Shown here one piece after another: positions 49,616-62,674 of a DNA stretch of 64,000 bases. Origin of the DNA: Thermodesulfovibrionia bacterium (lineage in GTDB: Bacteria; Nitrospirota; Thermodesulfovibrionia; UBA6902); assembly GCA_963699585.1 (NCBI GenBank), contig CAVOUK010000007.1:361-64360 (forward strand). The letters run 5' to 3'. Positions within the stretch are counted from its first letter, which is position 1. Every line of letters begins with the position of its first letter. A program made the position numbers and the translations under genes. The notes under the pieces are model-generated. The model saw only the letters and a list, made by a program, of their open reading frames with translations, ran no database searches and was not told where the DNA came from.

Positions 49616-51347
49616 TTATGCAAAGTGCCAGCAATATGTAATTACGCCTGTGAGTATGAAATTACTGTCTATGATCGCCTCGAATAACCTGCTTGCCTGA
49701 ATTCTTCTTTTCTGGAAAATATATAAACATGCTACCATGAAGACCGGTGATATAACTAAATAATACCCGAGTGAAGGCACAAGACCAAAGCCAGCGGATA
49801 AAGACATGAACAGGCCTATAATTACAGTAAGAATAAGCAGCATGGTTTGTGTATGCTTCGGACCTAATAGTATCGGGATGGTTTCCCTGCCGACTATCCT
49901 GTCTCCCTCTATACTCACGATATCAAAGACTACCGACCTTATAAACACTGTTAGAATGACAAACAACAAAACAGATATTGACTTGTAAGAGAAATAAATT
50001 CCCTGGTTCAGCATGGGAATGATGACAATAACCCAGGCCCAGGCGAGTGATACAAAAATATCCTTTGATCCCGGCAGGTCCCTGAACCTCTTATACCGCG
50101 TGAGATGCTGCAGCCTTTCAGGCACGATCCTTAACCTGTAAAGGATTCCCATAAGATAAGAAAACAGCAGGAGGATAAAATCCCTCATACTAAGCACGTA
50201 TGACAGATACAGACAAACTAAAGATGCTATCATAGCCGATATTATCAGGGCTTTCCCGTAATCCCTGAAGAATCTCATTCTTGCCGGATCAGAAAATTCG
50301 TCTTTCAATCTTTCATTATAACGGTTGAAAACATGCACTCCAAATACATAAAAAAAGGCGATCAGTAAAATGGTGGAAGAAGGCCTGTCACATAAAAATA
50401 TCATGCTAACATAACACATGCTTACAGCGCCGAGGCTTAAATACAGAGTGCTTTCCACCATAAATCCGCCGACACTTTCGAGAAATCTGTACAACCTGCC
50501 GCGCCTTTTTTTCAGGAGATGCTTTATTCTGTCTATTACTTTTATGATGACCCAATTGGGAGTTGAAGCTCCGGCCATTACGCCGATGTTTTCATATTGT
50601 TCAAGGCCGATATTATCAAGTTCATCTTCGTTCTCGATATGAAACGACGGCGTGCCTGTAGTGTGGGATATTTCATATAACCTTCTGGTATTTGCGCTGT
50701 TCTTCCCTCCTACAATGATCATTGCGTCAACTTCCCCTGCAAGCTCCAGGACTTCCTTTTGACGCATATTTGTTGAATCACAGATTGTATCAAATATTCT
50801 GACGTCAGGGACCTTCTTCCGTATTTTTTCAATTACTGCCTGAAAGAGCGTCCTGTCCTGTGTAGTCTGTGCAACAACACAGGCTTTATCCATATACGGC
50901 AATTTCTCTACATCATCAATATTTTCAACAACAAAACCCTCCCCGTCCGAATATCCGAGCAGCCCGTTCACCTCGGCATGTCCCCTGTCGCCGACAATAA
51001 TTGTCCTGTACCCATCCTTGACTTCTTTTTTAATTATTGCCTGTGCCCTTGCAACATGAGGGCATGTTGCATCACATACCACATTGCCTGTTGCTTTTAA
51101 TTTTCTCCTCTCATGAGGGAGCAACTCCATGTGCCCTTAATATTACCGTTGCATCCGAGACAGAACTGTTTTTATCAAGGACCTCCACCCCTTTCTGTTT
51201 CAGCATTTCTATGGCCTGTGGGTTGTGAACAAGAGGCCCGTAAGTAAATAAGGCGCCTTTCTTTTTATGGGCTGCGTCAAGGACTATGTTCATGGCCCGC
51301 CGGACTCCCATGCAGAAACCGGCGGTCTTGGCAAGCTTAACCTTCAA
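49616..51347 (-). CDS. ispH: IspH (HMBPP reductase) fused to a C-terminal UbiA-like multi-pass membrane domain; frameshift near 51115
   Basis: AGFCMGV, RAHG, DATCPHV, QTT, DTICDST, SANT, AGASTP, followed by about 290 aa with about eight TM helices and DIVSIEGDRIVGRETIP. Confidence 0.9.
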
Positions 51348-54142: not shown

Positions 54143-54301
54143 ATGGAAAAATGGAAATGCAGTGTATGCGGCTATGTTTATGATCCTGCGGCAGGAGACC
54201 CTGACGGCAATGTGCCGCCGAATACGCCGTTTGAGAAATTACCCGATGACTGGGCCTGTCCTGTATGCGGGGCCTCAAAAGATCAGTTTGAAAAAGTCTG
54301 A
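54143..54301 (+). CDS. Rubredoxin
   Basis: Not in the ORF track: [52 protein letters not shown]. Confidence 0.97.
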
Positions 54302-54381: not shown

Positions 54382-54575
54382 TTACTTTGGAACGTCGGTT
54401 GCCTTTGATGTTACCTTGTAGTCAATTCCCGCATCGGCAGGGGTCTTCATCTTGATGACTTTAATAAAACCGTAGCCCATACCGGCATGACAGTTATTAC
54501 AGTGAGAAATCACAGCGTCATGCTCCTTTTCGAAGGCTTTCATGTCCTGGGCCTGTATTGCATTATACAACCCCG
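54382..54575 (-). pseudogene. 5'-truncated c-type cytochrome (cytochrome c'-like C-terminal CxxCH)
   Basis: LYNAIQAQDMKAFEKEHDAVISHCNNCHAGMGYGFI; no signal peptide or credible start; the upstream DNA is the promoter of the next operon. Confidence 0.6.
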
Positions 54576-54615
54576 AATGAAGCCTCTGGTTAATAAAATG
54601 TGTTATCATAATCCT

Positions 54616-55525
54616 ATGAATAAACTTTTCATTTCAATGTCTTTGCTGATATTTCTTTTTGCCGGGTGTGATAACGTTGATGAACCCGCCCCTCAAGAGT
54701 GTAAAATCAGACAAACCGCTAATTATAGGACTTCTGCCTGAGCAAAACATCTTTCATCAGCTTGAGAGATATGACCCTCTTGCCAAATACATTTCCAGTA
54801 AGATAGGGATGAAAATAGAACTGAAGGTCCTTCCCCGATACGGAAATATCATCAACAACTTTGTCTCTGAGAATATGGACGGCGCCTTTTTCGGAAGTTT
54901 CACTTATGCGTTAGCACATTCAAAATTGGGACTTGAAGTCATCGCAAGACCCGAGGGCACTGAAGGTATATCAACCTATCACGGTCTGCTGTTTGCGAGA
55001 AAAGACAGCGGGATAAGAAACATAAAAGACATGGCAGGGAAAAGGCTTGCCTTTGTGGATAAGGCAACAACCGCCGGATACCTTCTACCGCTGGCATATT
55101 TCAAAAAGCACGGGATCGATAATTACAGGAACTACCTCAAAGAAACCTATTTTGCCGGCACTCATGAAGACGTGATCAATGATGTGCTTGACAGGAAAAC
55201 GGATATAGGCGCCGCAAAAAACACCGTGTTTTACCGGCTTGCAGAACAAGACAAAAGAATACTGAATGATCTGATCATTTTTGAAAGGTCACCCGAGGTG
55301 CCTGAAAACGGACTTGCCATGAGAAAAGACATCGACATATCAGTCAGGACCAAAATGAAAGAAATACTCCTTGATATGCATAATGATCCGGACGGCAAAA
55401 AGGTTTTAAAAGATTTCGGCGCTTCGAGGTTTGTTCCCACAAGCAATGATGACTACAAACCTGTTTTTGAATATGCAAAAGAGATAGGATTAAATCTTGC
55501 CACCTATGACTATATAAACGAGTAA
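54616..55525 (+). CDS. PhnD/PtxB/AioX-family periplasmic binding lipoprotein; frameshift near 54690
   Basis: MNKLF...FLFAGC lipobox in one frame, then IIGLLPEQ, DGAFFGSFTY, FVDKATTAGY, FAGTHED. Confidence 0.88.
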
Positions 55526-57363
55526 TGAGAGCAAAAATAATTATAGGTCTCAGCATCTTTGCCTTGGTCCTCTCCCTGTCCTGTATTTATATAATAAGCA
55601 CTATCGAAAAAACTACTTCAGGACTTGAAAGACTTATACTGCTTCACCAGGTAGAAATACTCAGAGAGCATCTTTTAATTCAGATTAAACGTGTTCAATC
55701 AGACCTCAGTCTCAGAAATACCCGGTTTGCCAAGGGTTTTAACGCCATGATAAATGATGTCAATACCATGGTAGATACAGCTAACACGTGTTTTCGCTGT
55801 CATCACGAAAAGGATGTTGAAAAAAGACTCACTGACTTAACCAGCCAGATTCATTCATATCAGGGCGCCTTAAGCAGGGTGTCAACGATAAGGGCCAATA
55901 CAGAAAGATTAACACTGGAAGAAGACAATACCTTTAGGATAGGTTCGGATTTAATTGCAACTGTAAATGACATGATAGCTATGGCGGGAAGCAAGCTTGA
56001 AGAGAAAACACAAGCCGCCCTTGTAAAAATAAGATACACTAAAATGGTACTTTATGTGCTTATCTGCGTCGGTCCCCTTATTTCAGCAATTTTAGGAATA
56101 GTATTAATACGGGGGATCTCAAAACCTATGAGCGAACTCCTTAATGCGACAAGGAAACTAAAAGATGGCGATTTAAACTACCATATCCGGCCGTTGAAGA
56201 ATGAATTCGGAGAGCTGGCATTGTCTTTTAATGAGATGGCCGGTTCCCTGAAACAATATCTCTCTAAAATAGAGGAGAGCGAAAAGCGCTACAGGACGCT
56301 TTTCGAAAATGCGGAGGAGGCAATTTTTATTCTCGAAGCTGAAGGAGAAAAAGCTGGCCGGATCGTTGCCGCCAACAGGGCGGCGGCAGAAATGCACGGT
56401 TATACAGTTGATGAACTGCTGACATTGAACATAAAAGATCTCGATTCGCCTGACGCCGCCCGTAACGTGCCTGATAATATTAAAAGGATATTAAACGGGG
56501 AGCAGATAAAAGCAGAGATTACACATCATAAGAAGGACGGCACTGTTTTCCCGGTTGAAATAAGCGCCGGACTGCTCGATCTCTCAGGTCATAAATACAT
56601 ACTCGCCTTTGACAGGGACATCACCGGGCGCAAGCTGGCGGAGGAACAATTCCTTCGCACCGAACAAATGGTGGTATGCGGTGAGGTGACAACAGGACTG
56701 GCCCATGAAATTAAAAATCCCCTCGCAGGCATCAAGGCATCAATACAATTATTCTCCGGGATATCAACACTTCCGGAGGAAGAAAAAATTATTTTAGGGA
56801 AGATTGTCGGGGAAATAAAACGGATTGAATTATTGTTAAAGGGGATCCTTAATTTTGCCAAACCTCCTAAACCTGACTTTATTTCTGTGAATGTAAATAG
56901 TATACTTGAGACAGCCCTTACTTTCTCACTTACGTCTTCATCTTTACATCAGGGTTCAAAGGGGGAAATAAAGCTTTTAAAAGACCTTGACCACAATCTT
57001 CCCGAGATCATAGCGGACCCGATGCAACTAAGCCAGATATTTCTTAATCTGTTGCTCAATGCAAACGAGGCTATGAAGGATGGCGGTATTTTAACTATAA
57101 AAACTTCATATAATCCAATGGAAAATTCAATATTCATTACAATATCAGATACAGGTACGGGTATAAAAAAGGAATTGCTGGAACAGGTGTTTCATCCTTT
57201 TTTTACTACCAAACCCAAGGGGACCGGACTTGGGTTAGCTATTACTAAACGACTGACGGAACAGCATAATGGTCAATTAACTTTTGTAAATAATCCGGCT
57301 GGAGGAGCAACATTTACTATAAAACTCCCCGTTAAACAACATCAAATGGTGCAATCAGCATGA
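55525..57363 (+). CDS. Sensor histidine kinase with a periplasmic heme-c motif, HAMP and PAS
   Basis: TM, periplasmic CFRCH, TM, HAMP (EFGELA.SFNEM), PAS, LAHEIKNPL, FFTTK, GTGLGL. Confidence 0.92.
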   Translation: MRAKIIIGLSIFALVLSLSCIYIISTIEKTTSGLERLILLHQVEILREHLLIQIKRVQSDLSLRNTRFAKGFNAMINDVNTMVDTANTCFRCHHEKDVEKRLTDLTSQIHSYQGALSRVSTIRANTERLTLEEDNTFRIGSDLIATVNDMIAMAGSKLEEKTQAALVKIRYTKMVLYVLICVGPLISAILGIVLIRGISKPMSELLNATRKLKDGDLNYHIRPLKNEFGELALSFNEMAGSLKQYLSKIEESEKRYRTLFENAEEAIFILEAEGEKAGRIVAANRAAAEMHGYTVDELLTLNIKDLDSPDAARNVPDNIKRILNGEQIKAEITHHKKDGTVFPVEISAGLLDLSGHKYILAFDRDITGRKLAEEQFLRTEQMVVCGEVTTGLAHEIKNPLAGIKASIQLFSGISTLPEEEKIILGKIVGEIKRIELLLKGILNFAKPPKPDFISVNVNSILETALTFSLTSSSLHQGSKGEIKLLKDLDHNLPEIIADPMQLSQIFLNLLLNANEAMKDGGILTIKTSYNPMENSIFITISDTGTGIKKELLEQVFHPFFTTKPKGTGLGLAITKRLTEQHNGQLTFVNNPAGGATFTIKLPVKQHQMVQSA

Positions 57364-58751
57364 CAACCAAAAAGAAAATATTTCTTATAGACGATGATGA
57401 GCTGATCGTCTCTGTACTGAGCAAGGCATTAATCGCTGAAGGATATGAGGTGCTCGCCGAGTCCACTGAATTCAAAGATATTACCGATAAGATCGGAGCT
57501 TATTTCCCTGATGTAATATTGCTTGATAATAAACTTGCGGGATTAAGCGGTCTGGAGATTCTTAATGATATAAAACAAAGCGGAATAGATGCTCAGGTGA
57601 TTATGCTGACAGCAGACGACACCGCAGAGACAGCTGTGAAGGCGATGAAATTAGGCGCTGCAGATTATTTGACCAAACCTTTCAATATAGAGGAAATGAA
57701 GATAGTCATAAGCAATATCATCGAGAAAAAATCTCTCAAACAGGAAGTTGCTGTTCTTCGGAGGATCAGCAGTGAGTATTTCGATGAAAATATCATCGGG
57801 GAGTCAAGCATTGTAAGCGAATTGAAAACAAAGATAAAAAAGTTGGCAGATGCACATGTTTCGAGTATTTTAATCACAGGAGAGAGCGGGACCGGCAAGG
57901 AGCTCTTTTCAAGGTACATACATCGCTTAATGTTCGGTGATGACAAATCAAGGAGCAAGCCGTTTGTTGCAATTAATTGTGCTGCGTTACCGGAACAGTT
58001 AATGGAGAGTGAACTGTTTGGACATGATAAGGGCTCATTCACTGATGCAAAAACAGATAAAAAAGGCGTTTTTGAACTTGCAAACGGAGGGTCTCTCCTG
58101 CTTGACGAGATAGGCGAAATGAGACCAAATCTGCAGAGCAAATTATTAAGGGTCCTTGAGGAAAGGACCGTAAGACGCATCGGAGGGAAATGGGACATGC
58201 AGGTGCATGTAACGGTGCTCGCCACCACAAACAGAAACCTCTCCGAGGCTGTAAAAATCGGCGATTTCAGGTCGGATTTATTTTTCAGGTTAAGCAACTT
58301 TTACATGCACATACCGCCGCTCAGGGAAAGACCTGAAGATATTCCTCTGCTTACCAGGCACTTTTTGTCCTATTATTCCACGCAGTATAACAAGAAGACC
58401 ATTAAAGGATTTTCCGCCGAAGCCCTAAAAAATATGACTTCTTATAAATGGCCCGGCAATATAAGGGAGTTGAAGAATCTCATTGAACGGCTTGTGGTGC
58501 TTGAAAATGCAGAAGAGATTCTTCCTGCACATCTCCCGAATTGGCTGACAAATGTTTCGATCTCTGAAGCCCATGCTCCCGATAAAAAATTTATTATGCC
58601 CGACGAAGGCATATCTTTAGACGATCTGGAGAAAGACCTCTTTGTACAAGCGCTCAAAAAAGCAGACAATAACAAGGTGGCTGCGGCAAAGCTCCTTAAT
58701 ATCAGCTATGATTCTCTCAGGTATGGGATTAAGAAGTTCGGGTTGAAGTAG
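57360..58751 (+). CDS. NtrC-family sigma54-dependent response regulator
   Basis: REC, GESGTGKE, ESELFGH-GSFTDA (GAFTGA variant), LDEIGE, WPGNIREL, Fis HTH. Confidence 0.95.
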   Translation: MTTKKKIFLIDDDELIVSVLSKALIAEGYEVLAESTEFKDITDKIGAYFPDVILLDNKLAGLSGLEILNDIKQSGIDAQVIMLTADDTAETAVKAMKLGAADYLTKPFNIEEMKIVISNIIEKKSLKQEVAVLRRISSEYFDENIIGESSIVSELKTKIKKLADAHVSSILITGESGTGKELFSRYIHRLMFGDDKSRSKPFVAINCAALPEQLMESELFGHDKGSFTDAKTDKKGVFELANGGSLLLDEIGEMRPNLQSKLLRVLEERTVRRIGGKWDMQVHVTVLATTNRNLSEAVKIGDFRSDLFFRLSNFYMHIPPLRERPEDIPLLTRHFLSYYSTQYNKKTIKGFSAEALKNMTSYKWPGNIRELKNLIERLVVLENAEEILPAHLPNWLTNVSISEAHAPDKKFIMPDEGISLDDLEKDLFVQALKKADNNKVAAAKLLNISYDSLRYGIKKFGLK

Positions 58752-58774: not shown

Positions 58775-59447
58775 TTATATATACTCTATTCCGGCCCTGA
58801 ATTCATTATTGCCCGTCATTGAGATCCATTTAACAATCCCCGCCTTATGCTCTGCCCCTTCGATCTCAATGGTCTGGCCGGCATGGAGTGAGTACTCTGT
58901 AAGGATACCAATTCCCCCATCACTGATATCAACTATATTCCCTTTCAGGTTCAGTATCCTTGATTCTGCAAGTTCAGCGGCTTTTATGGAAAAATCAAAG
59001 GTTTCTTTTAATGGCCTTCTCTCATGCCTTCTCTTGCTTCTCCTGCTTTTCCATATTAATTAGTGGTTCGGACGATCCATCTTTCTCCAGAGCATTCTTC
59101 AGAATAAATTTGACCTGATAGAAATCAAAAGGTTTGGATATGAATTGATAGGCCATCTCTTCCACCTTTTTCTTGCACTCCTCATCAAGGTCTTCTGCTG
59201 TCATGATAATAACCGCGGTCTTCGGTGAAATCTTTTTTATCTTTTTCATGACGTCTATGCCGTTTGCATCGGGCAGGTGTATGTCTAAAAAACAGACATC
59301 ATAAAAACTGGAGGCTATTTCAGATGCAGCCTCAGTGCCGTTATCTATGGATTTAATTTCAACAGGACAGTTACAAAACGCAGGGATATGCTTTGACAGT
59401 CCCCAGCGGATCAGGTTATCGTCATCAACTATCATTATTCGCTTCAT
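58775..59447 (-). CDS. Receiver domain fused to a PilZ domain; frameshift near 59040
   Basis: REC ORF 59022..59447. An alternative frame reads KRRHERRPL...IVDISDGGIGI...GIVKW...FRAGIEYI to a stop at 58775 (RxxxR and DxSxxG). Confidence 0.8.
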
Positions 59448-59574
59448 AAAATATTTGCAATCAGCATATCATTTTTATCGTTTCTGCCAAGGTTAACTCG
59501 CGCTTGATGCGGCACAACTAATGCTTTAAAAGTAATGTCCGTGATAAGCGCATAATTTATCGTATAAAATATAA

Positions 59575-59590
59575 TGCAAATTCTGTACCA
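59575..59590 (-). promoter_or_regulatory. sigma54 (-24/-12) promoter
   Basis: TGGTACAGAATTTGCA (GG-N10-GC) about 130 nt upstream of the REC-PilZ gene. Confidence 0.75.
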
Positions 59591-59761
59591 ACTCTATTAA
59601 TATGTTCTTTTTTTATAAGAGTTCTGTTTTTCTCGAAGGGTTAGCAAGCAATAACGGGTCCGGCGGTCTTAAAAACTTTAACTCAGGAAGATCAGTTTTT
59701 GGTGATATGACCAGATACGATTGGTAGTTTTTTCTATTAGATAGATAGCCTGGATGATGTC

Positions 59762-61612
59762 TTACGGATAACTCTCGCCGGTATGGGTCCTACCATGGCA
59801 AACAAGCGTACAGTTTCCCGAAAAAGTGCCTGTATCATTGAATTCAGGGAATTGCTTGCCGGATGCCGGCATAACAACTCTTGTATCGAAATTTATCAGA
59901 TGCGTGTGACTTCCTGAAAGACCGTTGTCTGTTATTCCGTGGGGATCGTGACATACGGAACAGGGAGTGCCTTTTTAGGTCCGCAATGCGTTTTTTGTGT
60001 TCAACGTGAAACTCAAATCGCTCAGTATGCTCGTCCGGTCATGACACCTGTAGCAGAGCGCGTAATTCTGGTAGCTCTCCGGGGTATTGTCCAGGGTCTC
60101 GTATTGGTCCCTTAAGATAGGGGCGTAGGATGAACCATGAGGGCCTCTTGATCCGCCTGAATCATCACTATGGCAGTCGGTGCAATAGATGATACTTGAT
60201 GTTGTGAGGGACGGATTAAATGATGATGGTATGCTGGGTACATTAGGGTTTCTACCTGCTCCGACAACAGGGTGATAAGATGGATTTGTTATGGAAAAAG
60301 CATCCTGCATGTTCGTATTGTCAATAACTCTCGGGATGAAAGGCGTCCGCTGGAATAATTCCGCATGGCACTTAAAACAGATCTCATATTCATAATTGGC
60401 AGGATCAACAGCAGCCCTTTCGGCAGTCATTCCGGACACCTTTTCAAGCCTTCCGGATACATCGGGAGCTGATGCAGTCCGGTTGTTCGCGGCATGCGGA
60501 TTATGACAGTCTGCACATTCTACATGGCGGTTAGCAATAAATGTAGGTGATTCCGTCGGGTCGTGGCTACACCGGTGTACATAGCTCCACAGGATGCCTC
60601 GAAAGTTTCTGGAAATTTGAGAATATATGTTTTTCCCGCTACAGTTCCGTTATGGCATAGTATAGCAGGTATCTTCTTCATTAAGATGTATAGCAGCCGT
60701 TGAGGACCCCCTGCTGAATGGGGCGTATGACAGCCCTCACAAGCCCAGTCTGAGACAAGCGGCCAGGTCGGCCATGACCTTGGAGCTATGGGCAAAACAG
60801 TGCCCGTGGAGCTTGTAGATGTTTTATGGCTTGACAGCATCCAGCCGTCGATATTGCTGTGGCATGTGATGCATAATGCCGAGGCCCGGTTATCCATGAC
60901 AAGAAATTTCCCCGTCAGCTGGCCGTTCTTGTCCGACGACCTGTAGGCGTCCTCGTGCGCGTCATGACATGTCGAGCATTCAATAAACATGCTGCTGCCT
61001 CCGTAAAAAGGGAGGTCTGTAGGGAGAAGTGCCGGATTAAGTCCGGCATAAGGGTTCGGCAATGCATCGAGATACGAAAATGAGAAAGGGTGGTCGTCCG
61101 ACAGCACAACGCCGATATATGACGGCCTCCCCAGCGTGATCTGTCCTGTTGTTGCGATCCCGCCTGACGGCTGCAACACGGCTCCGAGTGCGAGGGTGCC
61201 GTCATGGCAACTGAGGCAGAGCCTTGACGGGCCATTCGGTTGTGAAGGCGTCACGCTCTGGGTCGTGCTTGTGTAAAGGATATAATTTACAGGGTCTATG
61301 GATTTATTCCACAAGCGGGGTCCTCGGAGTAGCATTATGCGGCGTATGACAAAAAATACAGATGCTGGTCTCGACCAGCGCCTTAGCTCACCCGGCCCTG
61401 ATACGGACATGTTATGCTTTGAATTAACGATCCCCACCTTTGAAACTGCGTCAGATGGAGAAACAGAAAACAGAATACAGAATACAGAAAACAGAATACA
61501 GAATACAAAATACCGAATTGCCTCCCGGCCCTGCGAACAGATTGTTAATCCGGTCAAATGCGTCGTGAGACGATTGACTGATGCCTCCTGTTCTATACAT
61601 GTTCATTTTCAT
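59762..61612 (-). CDS. Large periplasmic multiheme cytochrome c (about 11-12 hemes, doubled-CxxCH type); many frameshifts, start uncertain
   Basis: Across frames: CIFCHTPH, CLSCH, CSTCH, CITCH, CEGCH, a probable broken motif near 60660, CADCH, CFKCH, CTDCH, CYRCH, CSVCH and a terminal CTLVCH; stop at 59762. Confidence 0.88.
61464..61519. repeat. Heptamer tandem array encoding the cytochrome signal-peptide core
   Basis: (CAGAAAA CAGAATA CAGAATA)x2 CAAAATA CCGAATT; the minus strand reads YFVFCILFSVFCILFSV. Confidence 0.9.
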
Positions 61613-62674
61613 TGTTTGATTCTCATGATCTCAAATACCTGGATCCTATGATTGTACGTATCGCACACATATAGTCTATCACTTTCGTCGATGAAGATTC
61701 CAGACGGCAGCCAGAACTCTCCCTGATCAACACCCCTGCTGCCGAGCGTCAAAAGGAATTCTCCTCTTTCGTCAAAAAGCTGGATGTTATCGAAAAGACT
61801 GTCGACGACGTAAATAGTGCCCTTTCTATCAACAGCCACGCCTTTGGGCATTGCAAAATCTCCGGAGCCGTCGCCGTGATGACCGATTGCAGCATGGAAT
61901 TTCCCTGAGCTGTCGAATATCTCCACCCTGTAGTTCATTGAATCCGTCACATATATCAGCCCGGCCGGAGACCAGAAGATATGTGTCGGAAAATTGAATT
62001 GCCCGTCGCCGTTGCCCCTTAACCCGAATGAAAAGAGGCGCTCTCCCTTAGAAGTGAAAACATGAACCTTGTGCGAGGCTGTGTCTACGGCAAACAACCT
62101 CTTTTCGCCCGGGTCGTAGGCAAGGCCGGTCGGCCGTTTCAGGTCGCCTTCAAGCTTACTGCCGATAGAAAAAAGGTATCCACCCCTGTTGTCATAGACA
62201 GCGATCTTTTCAAGAAACGAATCGGATACATAGAGTCTTAATTCATCATCAAAGGCAACACTCACCGGGGATATCATAGGCTCTCCGGCGCCAAGGCGGA
62301 AGATGTCGATATACTGGTCCTCTTTGGGTATGTAAAGGTGAACGCTCTTTGTGCCTGTATCGGCTATTGCGATCCTCCCGTCAGTTCCGGTTGCAACTGC
62401 AACCGGCCTCATGAGCCTGTTTTCTTCATTTCCCATGAAGAACCCTCTCAGCGATCTCCCCCTTCTCTCTGAACCCCTGTATTGTCATGACATGACGGAC
62501 CCTCTGTTCTTCAGGCGGCAGCGGCCATGCAAGCTGCACCACCTGAGGCTGCACATTCAGGGTCCCACTTACGGGCACACCCCGCAGTAATAAGGACTGC
62601 GAGACATATTAAGACACACAGCTTCCTGTTCAATTTTCCCAGGTTTCTCATTTTCATTTTTCCCTTACTGCCAT
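61609..62674 (-). CDS. NHL-repeat (6-bladed beta-propeller) lipoprotein; N-terminal frameshifts
   Basis: F..P..VAVD..G.IYV.D..N.R.QVF repeats; upstream LITAGC lipobox and WPLPPEEQRV in other frames. Confidence 0.87.

Follow-up and report, generated by a model that had tools for sequence, protein, structure and literature searches.

A PhnD-type lipoprotein, a kinase with a CxxCHH helical bundle and a sigma54 regulator as a probable binding-protein-dependent phosphorelay in Thermodesulfovibrionia

A three-gene signalling module without transporter genes

A 64,000-nucleotide (nt) stretch of DNA from a Thermodesulfovibrionia bacterium (GenBank assembly GCA_963699585.1, contig CAVOUK010000007.1, positions 361 to 64,360 of the forward strand; hereafter the window) contains three plus-strand open reading frames (ORFs) encoding a PhnD-family binding protein, a sensor histidine kinase and a sigma54-type response regulator (Table 1). 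Positions are given in window coordinates, and residues of the kinase follow the numbering of the protein. The three ORFs overlap head to tail between 54616 and 58751, with junctions that share 1 and 4 bases, and these overlaps bear out the translational coupling of kinase and sigma54 activator to the PhnD gene that an earlier reading of the same DNA (the original prediction) had claimed. We consider it probable that the three products form a binding-protein-dependent phosphorelay made up of a PhnD-type lipoprotein, a kinase with a heme motif and a sigma54 regulator.

The lengths of the kinase and the regulator (612 and 463 amino acids (aa), respectively) correspond to the full length seen in relatives, and both proteins are closest to AtoS and AtoC among the NCBIfam models, with scores under the cut-off in both cases. 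The regulator possesses the REC, AAA+ and Fis-type helix-turn-helix (HTH) domains that the NtrC/AtoC class requires, and rpoN was found in the same genome. Its sigma54-contact loop reads GSFTDA, the loop consensus of sigma54 activators being GAFTGA. The 18 ORFs scanned from 42574 to 63377 include none with an ABC permease or ATPase domain, and no PhnE above the cut-off was present in the whole genome of this bacterium, which is 84% complete (best score 34 bits versus a cut-off of 216.7). The absence of ABC permease and ATPase genes nearby, as originally described, thus extends to PhnE at the genome level within this completeness.

Table 1. Features of the module and its surroundings in the window.
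Feature	Position	Strand	Details
Lipoprotein signal peptide MNKLFISMSLLIFLFAGC...	54616..54741	+	frame 1, ATG 54616, stop at 54741
PhnD-family ORF	54659..55525	+	Pfam Phosphonate-bd PF12974, E 4.9e-59, profile 1-242 of 242
Sensor histidine kinase, 612 aa	55525..57363	+	first transmembrane segment (TM1), periplasmic four-helix bundle, TM2, HAMP, PAS, HisKA, HATPase_c
Periplasmic four-helix-bundle domain (residues ~25-175)	55597..56049	+	AlphaFold2 predicted local distance difference test (pLDDT) 83.3; LytS N domain match
CFRCH, c-type heme attachment motif (CxxCHH with second His)	55789..55803	+	kinase residues 89-93
Sigma54 response regulator, 463 aa	57360..58751	+	REC, Sigma54_activat (E 1.5e-60), AAA_lid_14, HTH_8; NtrC/AtoC type
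REC-PilZ gene, convergent	58775..59447	-	REC ORF 59022-59447 and PilZ frame 58775-59059 (PilZ 25.7 bits)
Sigma54-type -24/-12 element TGGTACAGAATTTGCA	59575..59590	-	128 nt upstream of REC-PilZ start
Near-palindrome TGGTGATATGACCA	59700..59713		~110 nt upstream of sigma54 element; candidate regulator binding site
NHL beta-propeller gene and two multiheme cytochrome genes	59762..62656	-	upstream of sigma54 element, not driven by it

Frequent pairing of the PhnD-like gene with the kinase across genomes

The PhnD-like gene abuts the kinase gene in 25 of the 30 best loci recovered. When these were combined with 60 more distant matches to the sensor domain of the kinase to give 90 loci from one phylum, a PhnD-family ORF was found directly upstream on the same strand in 52 of the 86 scorable loci (4 were undecidable). 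A survey of species genomes from all phyla, with 80 loci that partly overlap the one-phylum set, placed a PhnD-like gene upstream in 53 of 76 scorable loci, with 23 lacking it and 4 undecidable. The hosts in this second set comprised Nitrospirota, Thermodesulfovibrionia, Dissulfurispiraceae, Desulfobacterales, Syntrophobacterales, Syntrophorhabdales and one metagenome-assembled genome of Deferribacteres. Because the gene arrangement was found again in dozens of genomes, it lies far beyond chance. An idea that the paralogs lack binding proteins was ruled out, as a binding-protein gene accompanies roughly half of the sensor loci at greater distance in sequence.

The window was compared with 20 orthologous loci taken with flanks of about 10 kb (21 loci in total), and their genes were checked within 6 kb. 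Binding-protein stop and kinase start codons overlap or abut in most loci, and PhnC/E-type genes were found within 6 kb in none of the 21. Both the proposal of a three-gene layout like that of AioXSR without transporter genes and the expectation that homologues are not usually accompanied by ABC transporter genes were sustained by this comparison. A MacB/FtsX efflux set was seen about 5 kb away in locus L038.

A tree of the 90 sensor domains placed PhnD linkage in both deep clades, so that 6 to 10 changes are needed, and one large unlinked subclade holds 24 of 29 rows. The tree of the 52 linked binding proteins matches three sensor groups with 2 changes, which is the minimum possible, and two of its splits received Shimodaira-Hasegawa-like approximate likelihood ratio test (SH-aLRT) values of 100. 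Because the binding-protein tree follows the sensor groups, the data support duplication and divergence of binding protein and sensor as pairs, a support that stops short of proof in that kinship alone gives some clustering.

Oxyanion pocket of the binding protein

The binding protein passes the cut-off of the broad phosphate/phosphite/phosphonate subfamily (TIGR01098) but does not reach that of the PhnD equivalog (TIGR03431; 172 bits, cut-off 261.1). Comparison of scores, as distinct from a tree, gave 110 bits for PtxB, 106 for PhnD, 64 for ArrX and 53 for AioX, and the closest solved structures are those of PtxB and PhnD; there was also a weak local match to a TtrS model (E 8.9e-4, 17.9 bits). 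We read DGAFFGSFTY and KATTAGY in the protein and found no Cys in its mature domain, in agreement with the DGAFFGSFTY and TTAG motifs and the Cys-free mature domain that had been pointed out before.

The PtxB/PhnD pocket consists of an STS-H motif and two Tyr residues together with a capping Tyr (phosphite) or Asp (aminoethylphosphonate), according to the accessible part of Bisson 2017. The pocket was mapped by a HMMER alignment to Te_PtxB (5jvb) combined with the residue list in the same part of that paper. Y55 and Y100 of PtxB correspond to Tyr and Tyr in the window protein and H160 to His, with Thr, Thr and Ala at the positions of S130, T131 and S132, Asn at that of the capping Y208 and Glu at that of D22. 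These mapped residues are invariant or almost so across 25 orthologues. Judged by this alignment, the oxyanion cradle is largely kept and the part that would choose the fourth substituent differs, and the ligand is most likely a small oxyanion or an oxyanion-bearing molecule other than arsenite and phosphite. Because the mature protein has no Cys, its ligand is not arsenite bound through Cys, as the original prediction had also argued.

Given that the binding protein matches the full Pfam profile, passes the TIGR01098 cut-off, has PtxB and PhnD as its closest structures and keeps most of the oxyanion-binding residues, it could be an ordinary phosphonate or phosphite transport protein serving an ABC transporter encoded elsewhere, with its proximity to the kinase being regulatory (as in PstS-PhoR) or incidental. 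The fold is indeed common among PhnD/PtxB transport proteins, but the equivalog cut-off, the PhnC/PhnE partners and the full pocket motif of those proteins were not found here, the phosphite-capping Tyr being replaced by Asn. In addition, the 84% complete genome has no PhnE over the cut-off and its six PhnD-family genes all stand beside signalling genes, PhnC/E-type genes are missing from all 21 loci, the codons of binding protein and kinase overlap or abut in most of them, and the predicted complex with the kinase described below passes. A transport role is therefore very unlikely, and we retain the reading of the protein as the sensory component of a phosphorelay.

The layout in which a PhnD-fold protein is encoded with a kinase and a regulator is shared with AioXSR, ArxXSR and ArrXSR, the regulator being of the sigma54 AtoC type in Aio and Arx, and an orthologue of these systems that senses arsenic oxyanions would show the same three genes with an AtoC-type regulator. 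In the accessible part of Badilla 2018, AioX is described as a binding protein that senses rather than transports, a role that gene context suggests here as well, and its Cys106 is located in a pocket conserved among AioX, ArxX and ArrX. Unlike these proteins, the one encoded by the window has no pocket Cys and is nearer in sequence to PtxB and PhnD than to AioX and ArrX. No Aio, Arx or Arr genes were detected in the 18 window ORFs (42.5-63.4 kb, E <=1e-3) or within 6 kb in the 20 relatives (E <=1e-8), so that the corresponding molybdoenzyme genes were seen in none of the 21 neighbourhoods. Furthermore, the sensor of AioS is listed as sCache-like in the accessible table of a 2021 review, whereas that of the present kinase is a four-helix bundle with CxxCHH, and the conserved REC-PilZ target and the several paralogous modules per genome found here are further differences from AioXSR. 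The module is not a member of AioXSR, from which it departs in four of five features (Cys, affinity, neighbours and sensor type), and the chance that it is an arsenic-sensing orthologue is slight in the extreme.

An invariant CxxCHH motif in an all-helical sensor domain

The N-terminal ~190-200 residues of the kinase gave no Pfam match up to E 0.01. A search of 5.8 billion proteins with the sensor region returned 507 hits, the best 120 of which show 49-100% identity over the sensor residues (the row at 100% is the window's own protein), and the named ones among these are mostly Nitrospirota or Thermodesulfovibrionia. Exactly one CxxCH is present within the first 230 residues in all 120. Searching 1.84 billion cluster representatives with a profile extended the family to 355, 284 and 161 clusters at E 1e-3, 1e-10 and 1e-30, respectively, and the profile match was N-terminal, beginning in the first 21 residues, in all 150 hits listed. 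CxxCH was present in 145 of the 147 new profile hits of at least 110 aa, and CxxCHH in 142; one of the two hits without CxxCH is N-terminally cut. The motif was also found in 90 of 90 relatives from one phylum and in 80 of 80 loci from species genomes of all phyla. The CFRCH that had been noticed in the periplasmic domain of the kinase is thus present at residues 89-93, and CxxCH is conserved in homologues by each of these four counts. Across the 90 domains, R47, L50, C89, C92, H93, H94 and L158 are invariant and H41 is kept in at least 80%. The domain occurs in 119 of 401 sampled genomes of one phylum, often in multiple copies.

AlphaFold2, run with a 30-row alignment, predicted four helices (2-62, 72-90, 96-121 and 126-199) and no beta sheet, and placed the motif at the lower end of helix 2, facing the nearly invariant His41 of helix 1. 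An exhaustive structural search gave as top match the LytS N domain of XylFII-LytS (5xsd_L; Z 15.7, root-mean-square deviation 2.0, 117 residues), a match that gives a fold class and not homology, helical bundles generally scoring high Z. McpS, NarQ, Adeh_2942 and QseE came next, and cytochrome c' ranked 49th (Z 10.9). Foldseek against the PDB yielded nothing at E <=0.001, with only weak generic helical sensors, and hits in the protein atlas were confined to unnamed clusters and to generic families of helical sensors.

To judge by the motif, the invariant CxxCHH most likely holds a covalently bound c-type heme that adds redox or gas input to the kinase. The heme motif of cytochrome c' is typically C-terminal, and both the weakness of the structural match to that protein and the position of the present motif at a helix end within the bundle would be in keeping with a bound metal or a redox-active dithiol at this site rather than heme. 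By contrast, Cys-x-x-Cys-His with a His that is always kept is the canonical attachment motif for c-type heme, and a dithiol switch would not need the His. The domain is also periplasmic, where heme attachment occurs, the host genomes are rich in c-type cytochrome genes, and two of the loci have ResB/CcsA-type assembly genes nearby. We regard a non-heme site as improbable and keep to heme as the probable occupant of the motif.

Extracytoplasmic sensors with a strictly conserved CxxCH are also represented by GSU0582 and GSU0935 of the sCache_heme type; DcrA is another heme-c sensor. Unlike the bundle described here, which is all-helical and paired with a binding protein, the sCache_heme domains are Cache/PAS-like and carry the motif on an inserted helix. 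They are enriched in Nitrospirota and Desulfobacterota, where they occur in kinases and chemoreceptors, as stated in the accessible part of a 2026 preprint (PMC12889525).

Predicted docking of the binding protein on the bundle tip

Sensor residues 26-176 and the mature binding protein were modelled as a complex of the two proteins only, each partner being supplied with its own alignment. The interface score ipSAE was 0.83, 0.85 and 0.84 in three runs versus 0.00 for the best of 3 controls; in calibration, the mark applied was reached by 116 of 157 solved complexes and by 2 of 215 mismatched pairs. The runs agreed on at least 94% of contacts, and partner pLDDT was at least 88. The kinase contacts (72-73, 76, 79, 113-114, 116-118, 120-125 and 128) make up the membrane-distal tip of the bundle. 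The binding protein contributed P19, N22-F24 and L27 (PEQNIF loop) and K48-R52 (KVLPR, just before the ligand Tyr) from lobe 1, and Y156-T160 (YFAGT, just before the ligand His) from lobe 2. The model thus predicts docking with both lobes on the bundle tip, and a two-lobe contact is what a reader of the closed, ligand-bound state would need.

Residue N125 at the tip is found in 87% of PhnD-linked sensors versus 24% of unlinked ones, and linked sensors preserve the tip motif S117 R118 .. T121. R A N125 .. R128 better than unlinked ones do. Use of SRVxTxRAN as a mark of PhnD-linked sensors only was considered and holds in part, given that only N125 differs strongly within residues 117-128.

To our knowledge, no structure of a complex between members of these two families has been solved. 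A comparable arrangement is offered by XylFII-LytS-YesN (5xsd), where XylFII, which is of the sugar-binding type and belongs to a different binding-protein family, docks as a free binding protein on the four-helix bundle of LytS (Foldseek template modelling score 0.80, target-normalised). The two systems differ in that sequence identity is 8%, LytS contains no heme motif and the regulator is of another type. TtrS likewise has a PhnD-like periplasmic domain that senses an oxyanion, fused to the kinase, whereas the module described here has a separate lipoprotein and a kinase with a heme-motif bundle of its own.

A conserved sigma54-type promoter faces the REC-PilZ gene

In the window, as in 12 of the 20 relatives, the regulator gene is directly followed by a convergent REC gene; REC and PilZ form one gene in relatives, with PilZ being C-terminal in the longer versions. 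With sigma54-type elements called at a score of at least 9 of 11 and with GG and GC fixed, such an element precedes the convergent REC gene by no more than 130 nt in 12 of 13 loci, and in the 13th (L049) it stands upstream of a PilZ gene located before the REC gene. For comparison, about 8 of about 320 other ORFs in these loci have an intergenic sigma54 site within 150 nt. Because the pattern is not enriched across the window (38 matches versus 50.4 expected), the sites are meaningful only by position and conservation. GGTGA half-site repeats upstream of the element are shared across loci, and a TGGTGA/TCACCA hexamer was found upstream by eye in 9 of the 12 loci with enough sequence, four loci being near relatives of each other. 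From this pattern, the REC-PilZ gene is predicted to be the conserved target of the module. An autoregulatory sigma54 promoter before the operon was rejected: the site at 54388-54403 scores 9 of 11, with a comparable site in L033 only.

The original prediction had assigned probable control of the adjacent multiheme conduit to the module. This part was not upheld: the only good neighbouring sigma54 promoter points away from the cytochromes and towards REC-PilZ. Past position 59429, contigs from close relatives no longer follow the window sequence, and the synteny with NHL and cytochrome genes is not common to them. Co-occurrence with multiheme genes, which had been suggested as well, stood for 11 of the 21 loci, where such genes lie within 6 kb, but was not general.

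In some relatives, the arrangement of promoters is consistent with additional targets. At L039:9025-9271 and L040:6202-6572, sigma54-type promoters stand back to back, one facing REC-PilZ (or REC) and the other facing an operon that encodes an NHL propeller, a multiheme cytochrome and a YNCE beta-propeller. In L044, L046 and L047, which belong to one family, a divergent sigma54-type promoter precedes TPR and GtrA/GT2 glycosyltransferase genes, suggesting that the output differs there and is possibly surface polysaccharide. In the genome of the window itself, strong sigma54-type elements at C7:72574-72589 and C7:69216-69231 on the minus strand, 9-13 kb further on, precede multiheme cytochrome and NHL genes, and GGTGA-type near-palindromes lie upstream of them at 72732 and 69375. 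These sites at C7:64-75 kb may belong to the regulon of this module or to that of a paralogous module at C7:92-96 kb.

Frame breaks in the assembled genes

The original prediction had described a PhnD-family lipoprotein. Signal peptide and domain are both present, but the single continuous frame is not: the signal peptide lies in frame 1 and the mature PhnD domain in frame 2, two frames that had been silently joined. Relatives at 95-96% identity encode intact lipoproteins in one frame, with lengths of 295-302 aa and reading MNKLFISMSLLIFLFAGCDNVDKPPLKSVK.... We compared the window with contigs from four runs, covering three samples and three studies, in which relatives are mostly 90-99% identical to it; the interval 59549-59700 is uncovered in them. 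One base at 54685 or 54687 is missing in the contigs of four of the four runs, that is, the window has one extra base, and position 54682 is A in all four and G in the window. The window is also without 8 bases at 59044, a loss that splits the REC-PilZ gene, and three of the four (X1, X2 and X6) have them. The missing bases are one unit of an imperfect tandem repeat (GCTTNTCC) in a Glu/Lys-rich linker.

Further breaks were found nearby. The multiheme ORF at 59762-60439 (minus strand) ends at a TAA at 59975-59977, and the same frame runs on for 70 more residues with CSVCH, so that the TAA is either an in-frame stop or an error. A lipoprotein signal, MKMRNLGKLNRKLCVLICLAVLITAGC (~62575-62655, minus strand), is off-frame from the NHL domain ORF at 61609-62436 and presumably belongs to the NHL-repeat gene.

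If the frameshift and the 8-base deletion were real, the module would be a decayed remnant in this bacterium, and the kinase would work partnerless or not at all. Consistent with such decay, neither the extra base at 54685-54687 nor the 8-base loss at 59044 occurs in related contigs, and the TAA and the off-frame NHL signal peptide add to the count of breaks. However, split genes occur throughout the assembly (PhnD paralogs in three and two pieces, kinases in two and cytochromes in at least six frames), a pattern that, in an assembly of 84% completeness on 12 contigs, fits indel errors better, and the kinase and the regulator have retained full length like their relatives. Because so many other genes are split across the assembly, assembly error is preferred over decay and is most likely the source of the breaks in the binding-protein and REC-PilZ genes, with decay being unlikely.

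Proposed mechanism and its place among known sensors

Gene order, motif conservation, absence of transporter genes, promoter pattern and co-divergence of binding protein and sensor are established by computation; heme binding, docking (a prediction), the class of ligand and the promoter choice of the regulator are inferred. In the phosphorelay proposed here, the PhnD-family lipoprotein would close on a small oxyanion-bearing ligand and, once closed, dock on the membrane-distal tip of the kinase bundle. A heme at CxxCHH, opposite His41, would add redox or gas input, and the kinase would thereby integrate ligand and redox state. It would then phosphorylate the NtrC-type regulator, which would activate the sigma54 promoter, with its upstream GGTGA-type repeats, before the convergent REC-PilZ gene. 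In some relatives, the regulator may also drive the NHL/multiheme-cytochrome or the TPR/glycosyltransferase operons.

Several findings weigh against this proposal. The binding-protein gene is frame-broken in the assembly, and its product, if translated from the ATG at 54680, lacks a signal peptide. The upstream PhnD-like gene is absent from 34 of the 86 sensor-domain loci, and the bundle can thus work alone; an adjacent regulator is missing in two orthologous loci, L034 and L050. The basis for heme attachment is the motif, the resemblance to LytS is one of fold class, and the complex is a matter of model confidence, obtained from self-made alignments of the two proteins, heme not being part of the model. 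The link between regulator and promoter derives from position, and other sigma54 regulators and PhnD-kinase modules could use the same sites. Counts are inflated by L044-L047, which are near relatives, and all relatives are uncultured.

In a more tentative extension of the proposal, to which we give somewhat less than even chances, the CxxCHH bundle would represent an undescribed family of heme-c sensors that act as coincidence detectors, the heme at the bundle base, through its redox state or bound gas, gating the passage across the membrane of the signal from docking of the ligand-loaded PhnD-type protein at the tip. The PhnD fold would then have been recruited to signalling a second time and on a larger scale than in AioX, and co-duplicated pairs would respond to different oxyanions in anaerobic Nitrospirota and Desulfobacterota and steer genes linked to cyclic di-GMP (REC-PilZ) and to extracellular electron transfer.

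AioX orthologues are the only signalling members of the PhnD family according to the accessible part of Badilla 2018, and only AioX appears under PF12974 in the accessible table of the 2021 review. The present module would be a second, larger set of PhnD-type sensors beyond AioX. A full-text literature search, with most subscription journals outside it, found no description of the module or of a helical-bundle heme-c sensor, in line with the earlier view of an undescribed system, and the combination of a PhnD-type sensor with a helical domain carrying a c-type heme motif was not found described. A sigma54-dependent regulator that switches on a cytochrome operon as the potential falls is known from Geobacter sulfurreducens (BccR; accessible part of 10.1101/2021.04.15.440034); as far as tested, there is no homology at the sensor level, the accessible part names no binding protein, and a cytochrome target occurs here only in some relatives.

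With predicted interface residues named, the module provides a concrete, testable case of one kinase reading a chemical ligand together with the state of a cofactor. The module is carried by uncultured groundwater and sediment anaerobes with many multiheme cytochromes, whose switching of respiratory or surface lifestyles could become easier to explain once a sensor is defined together with its promoter and operator. Another possible use of the binding proteins is as new scaffolds for oxyanion biosensors.

Paralogous modules and neighbouring genes

The genome of the window contains six PhnD-family genes, all beside signalling genes, and three of the partner kinases have CxxCH. A second module is located at C7:92089-96020 (minus strand), about 28 kb past the window end, and consists of a PhnD-like gene in three pieces, a CNNCH kinase in two pieces and a sigma54 regulator. 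The PhnD-kinase pair at C10:154775-157491 has CTGCH and no adjacent regulator, the kinase of the pair at C2:532304-536316 is without CxxCH, and further pairs are found at C2:429929-433544 and C11:227077-229744. In the region C7:64000-75000 (L200), a tandem pair of large multiheme cytochrome genes and a cluster of NHL and cytochrome genes are each broken into six or more frames. These ORFs were read by heme-motif counts, and Pfam at E up to 0.001 gave nothing for 11 of the 12 ORFs at C7:64-75 kb.

Directly upstream of the module lies a rubredoxin gene (54143-54301, plus strand; NCBIfam RubredRD, 90.7 bits). A 75-aa ORF with CNNCH and without a signal peptide (54382-54609, minus strand) adjoins the start of the PhnD-like gene; NCBIfam gave no match to it at E up to 0.01, its 9 substitutions relative to relatives show no third-position bias, and it is probably no gene or a cytochrome remnant. 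The weak sigma54-like site at 54388-54403 falls within this ORF. Further away, a 504-aa ORF (49616-51130, minus strand) combines a UbiA prenyltransferase domain with a LytB match from which the first 69 positions of the profile are missing, and is either an unusual fusion or an assembly artefact.

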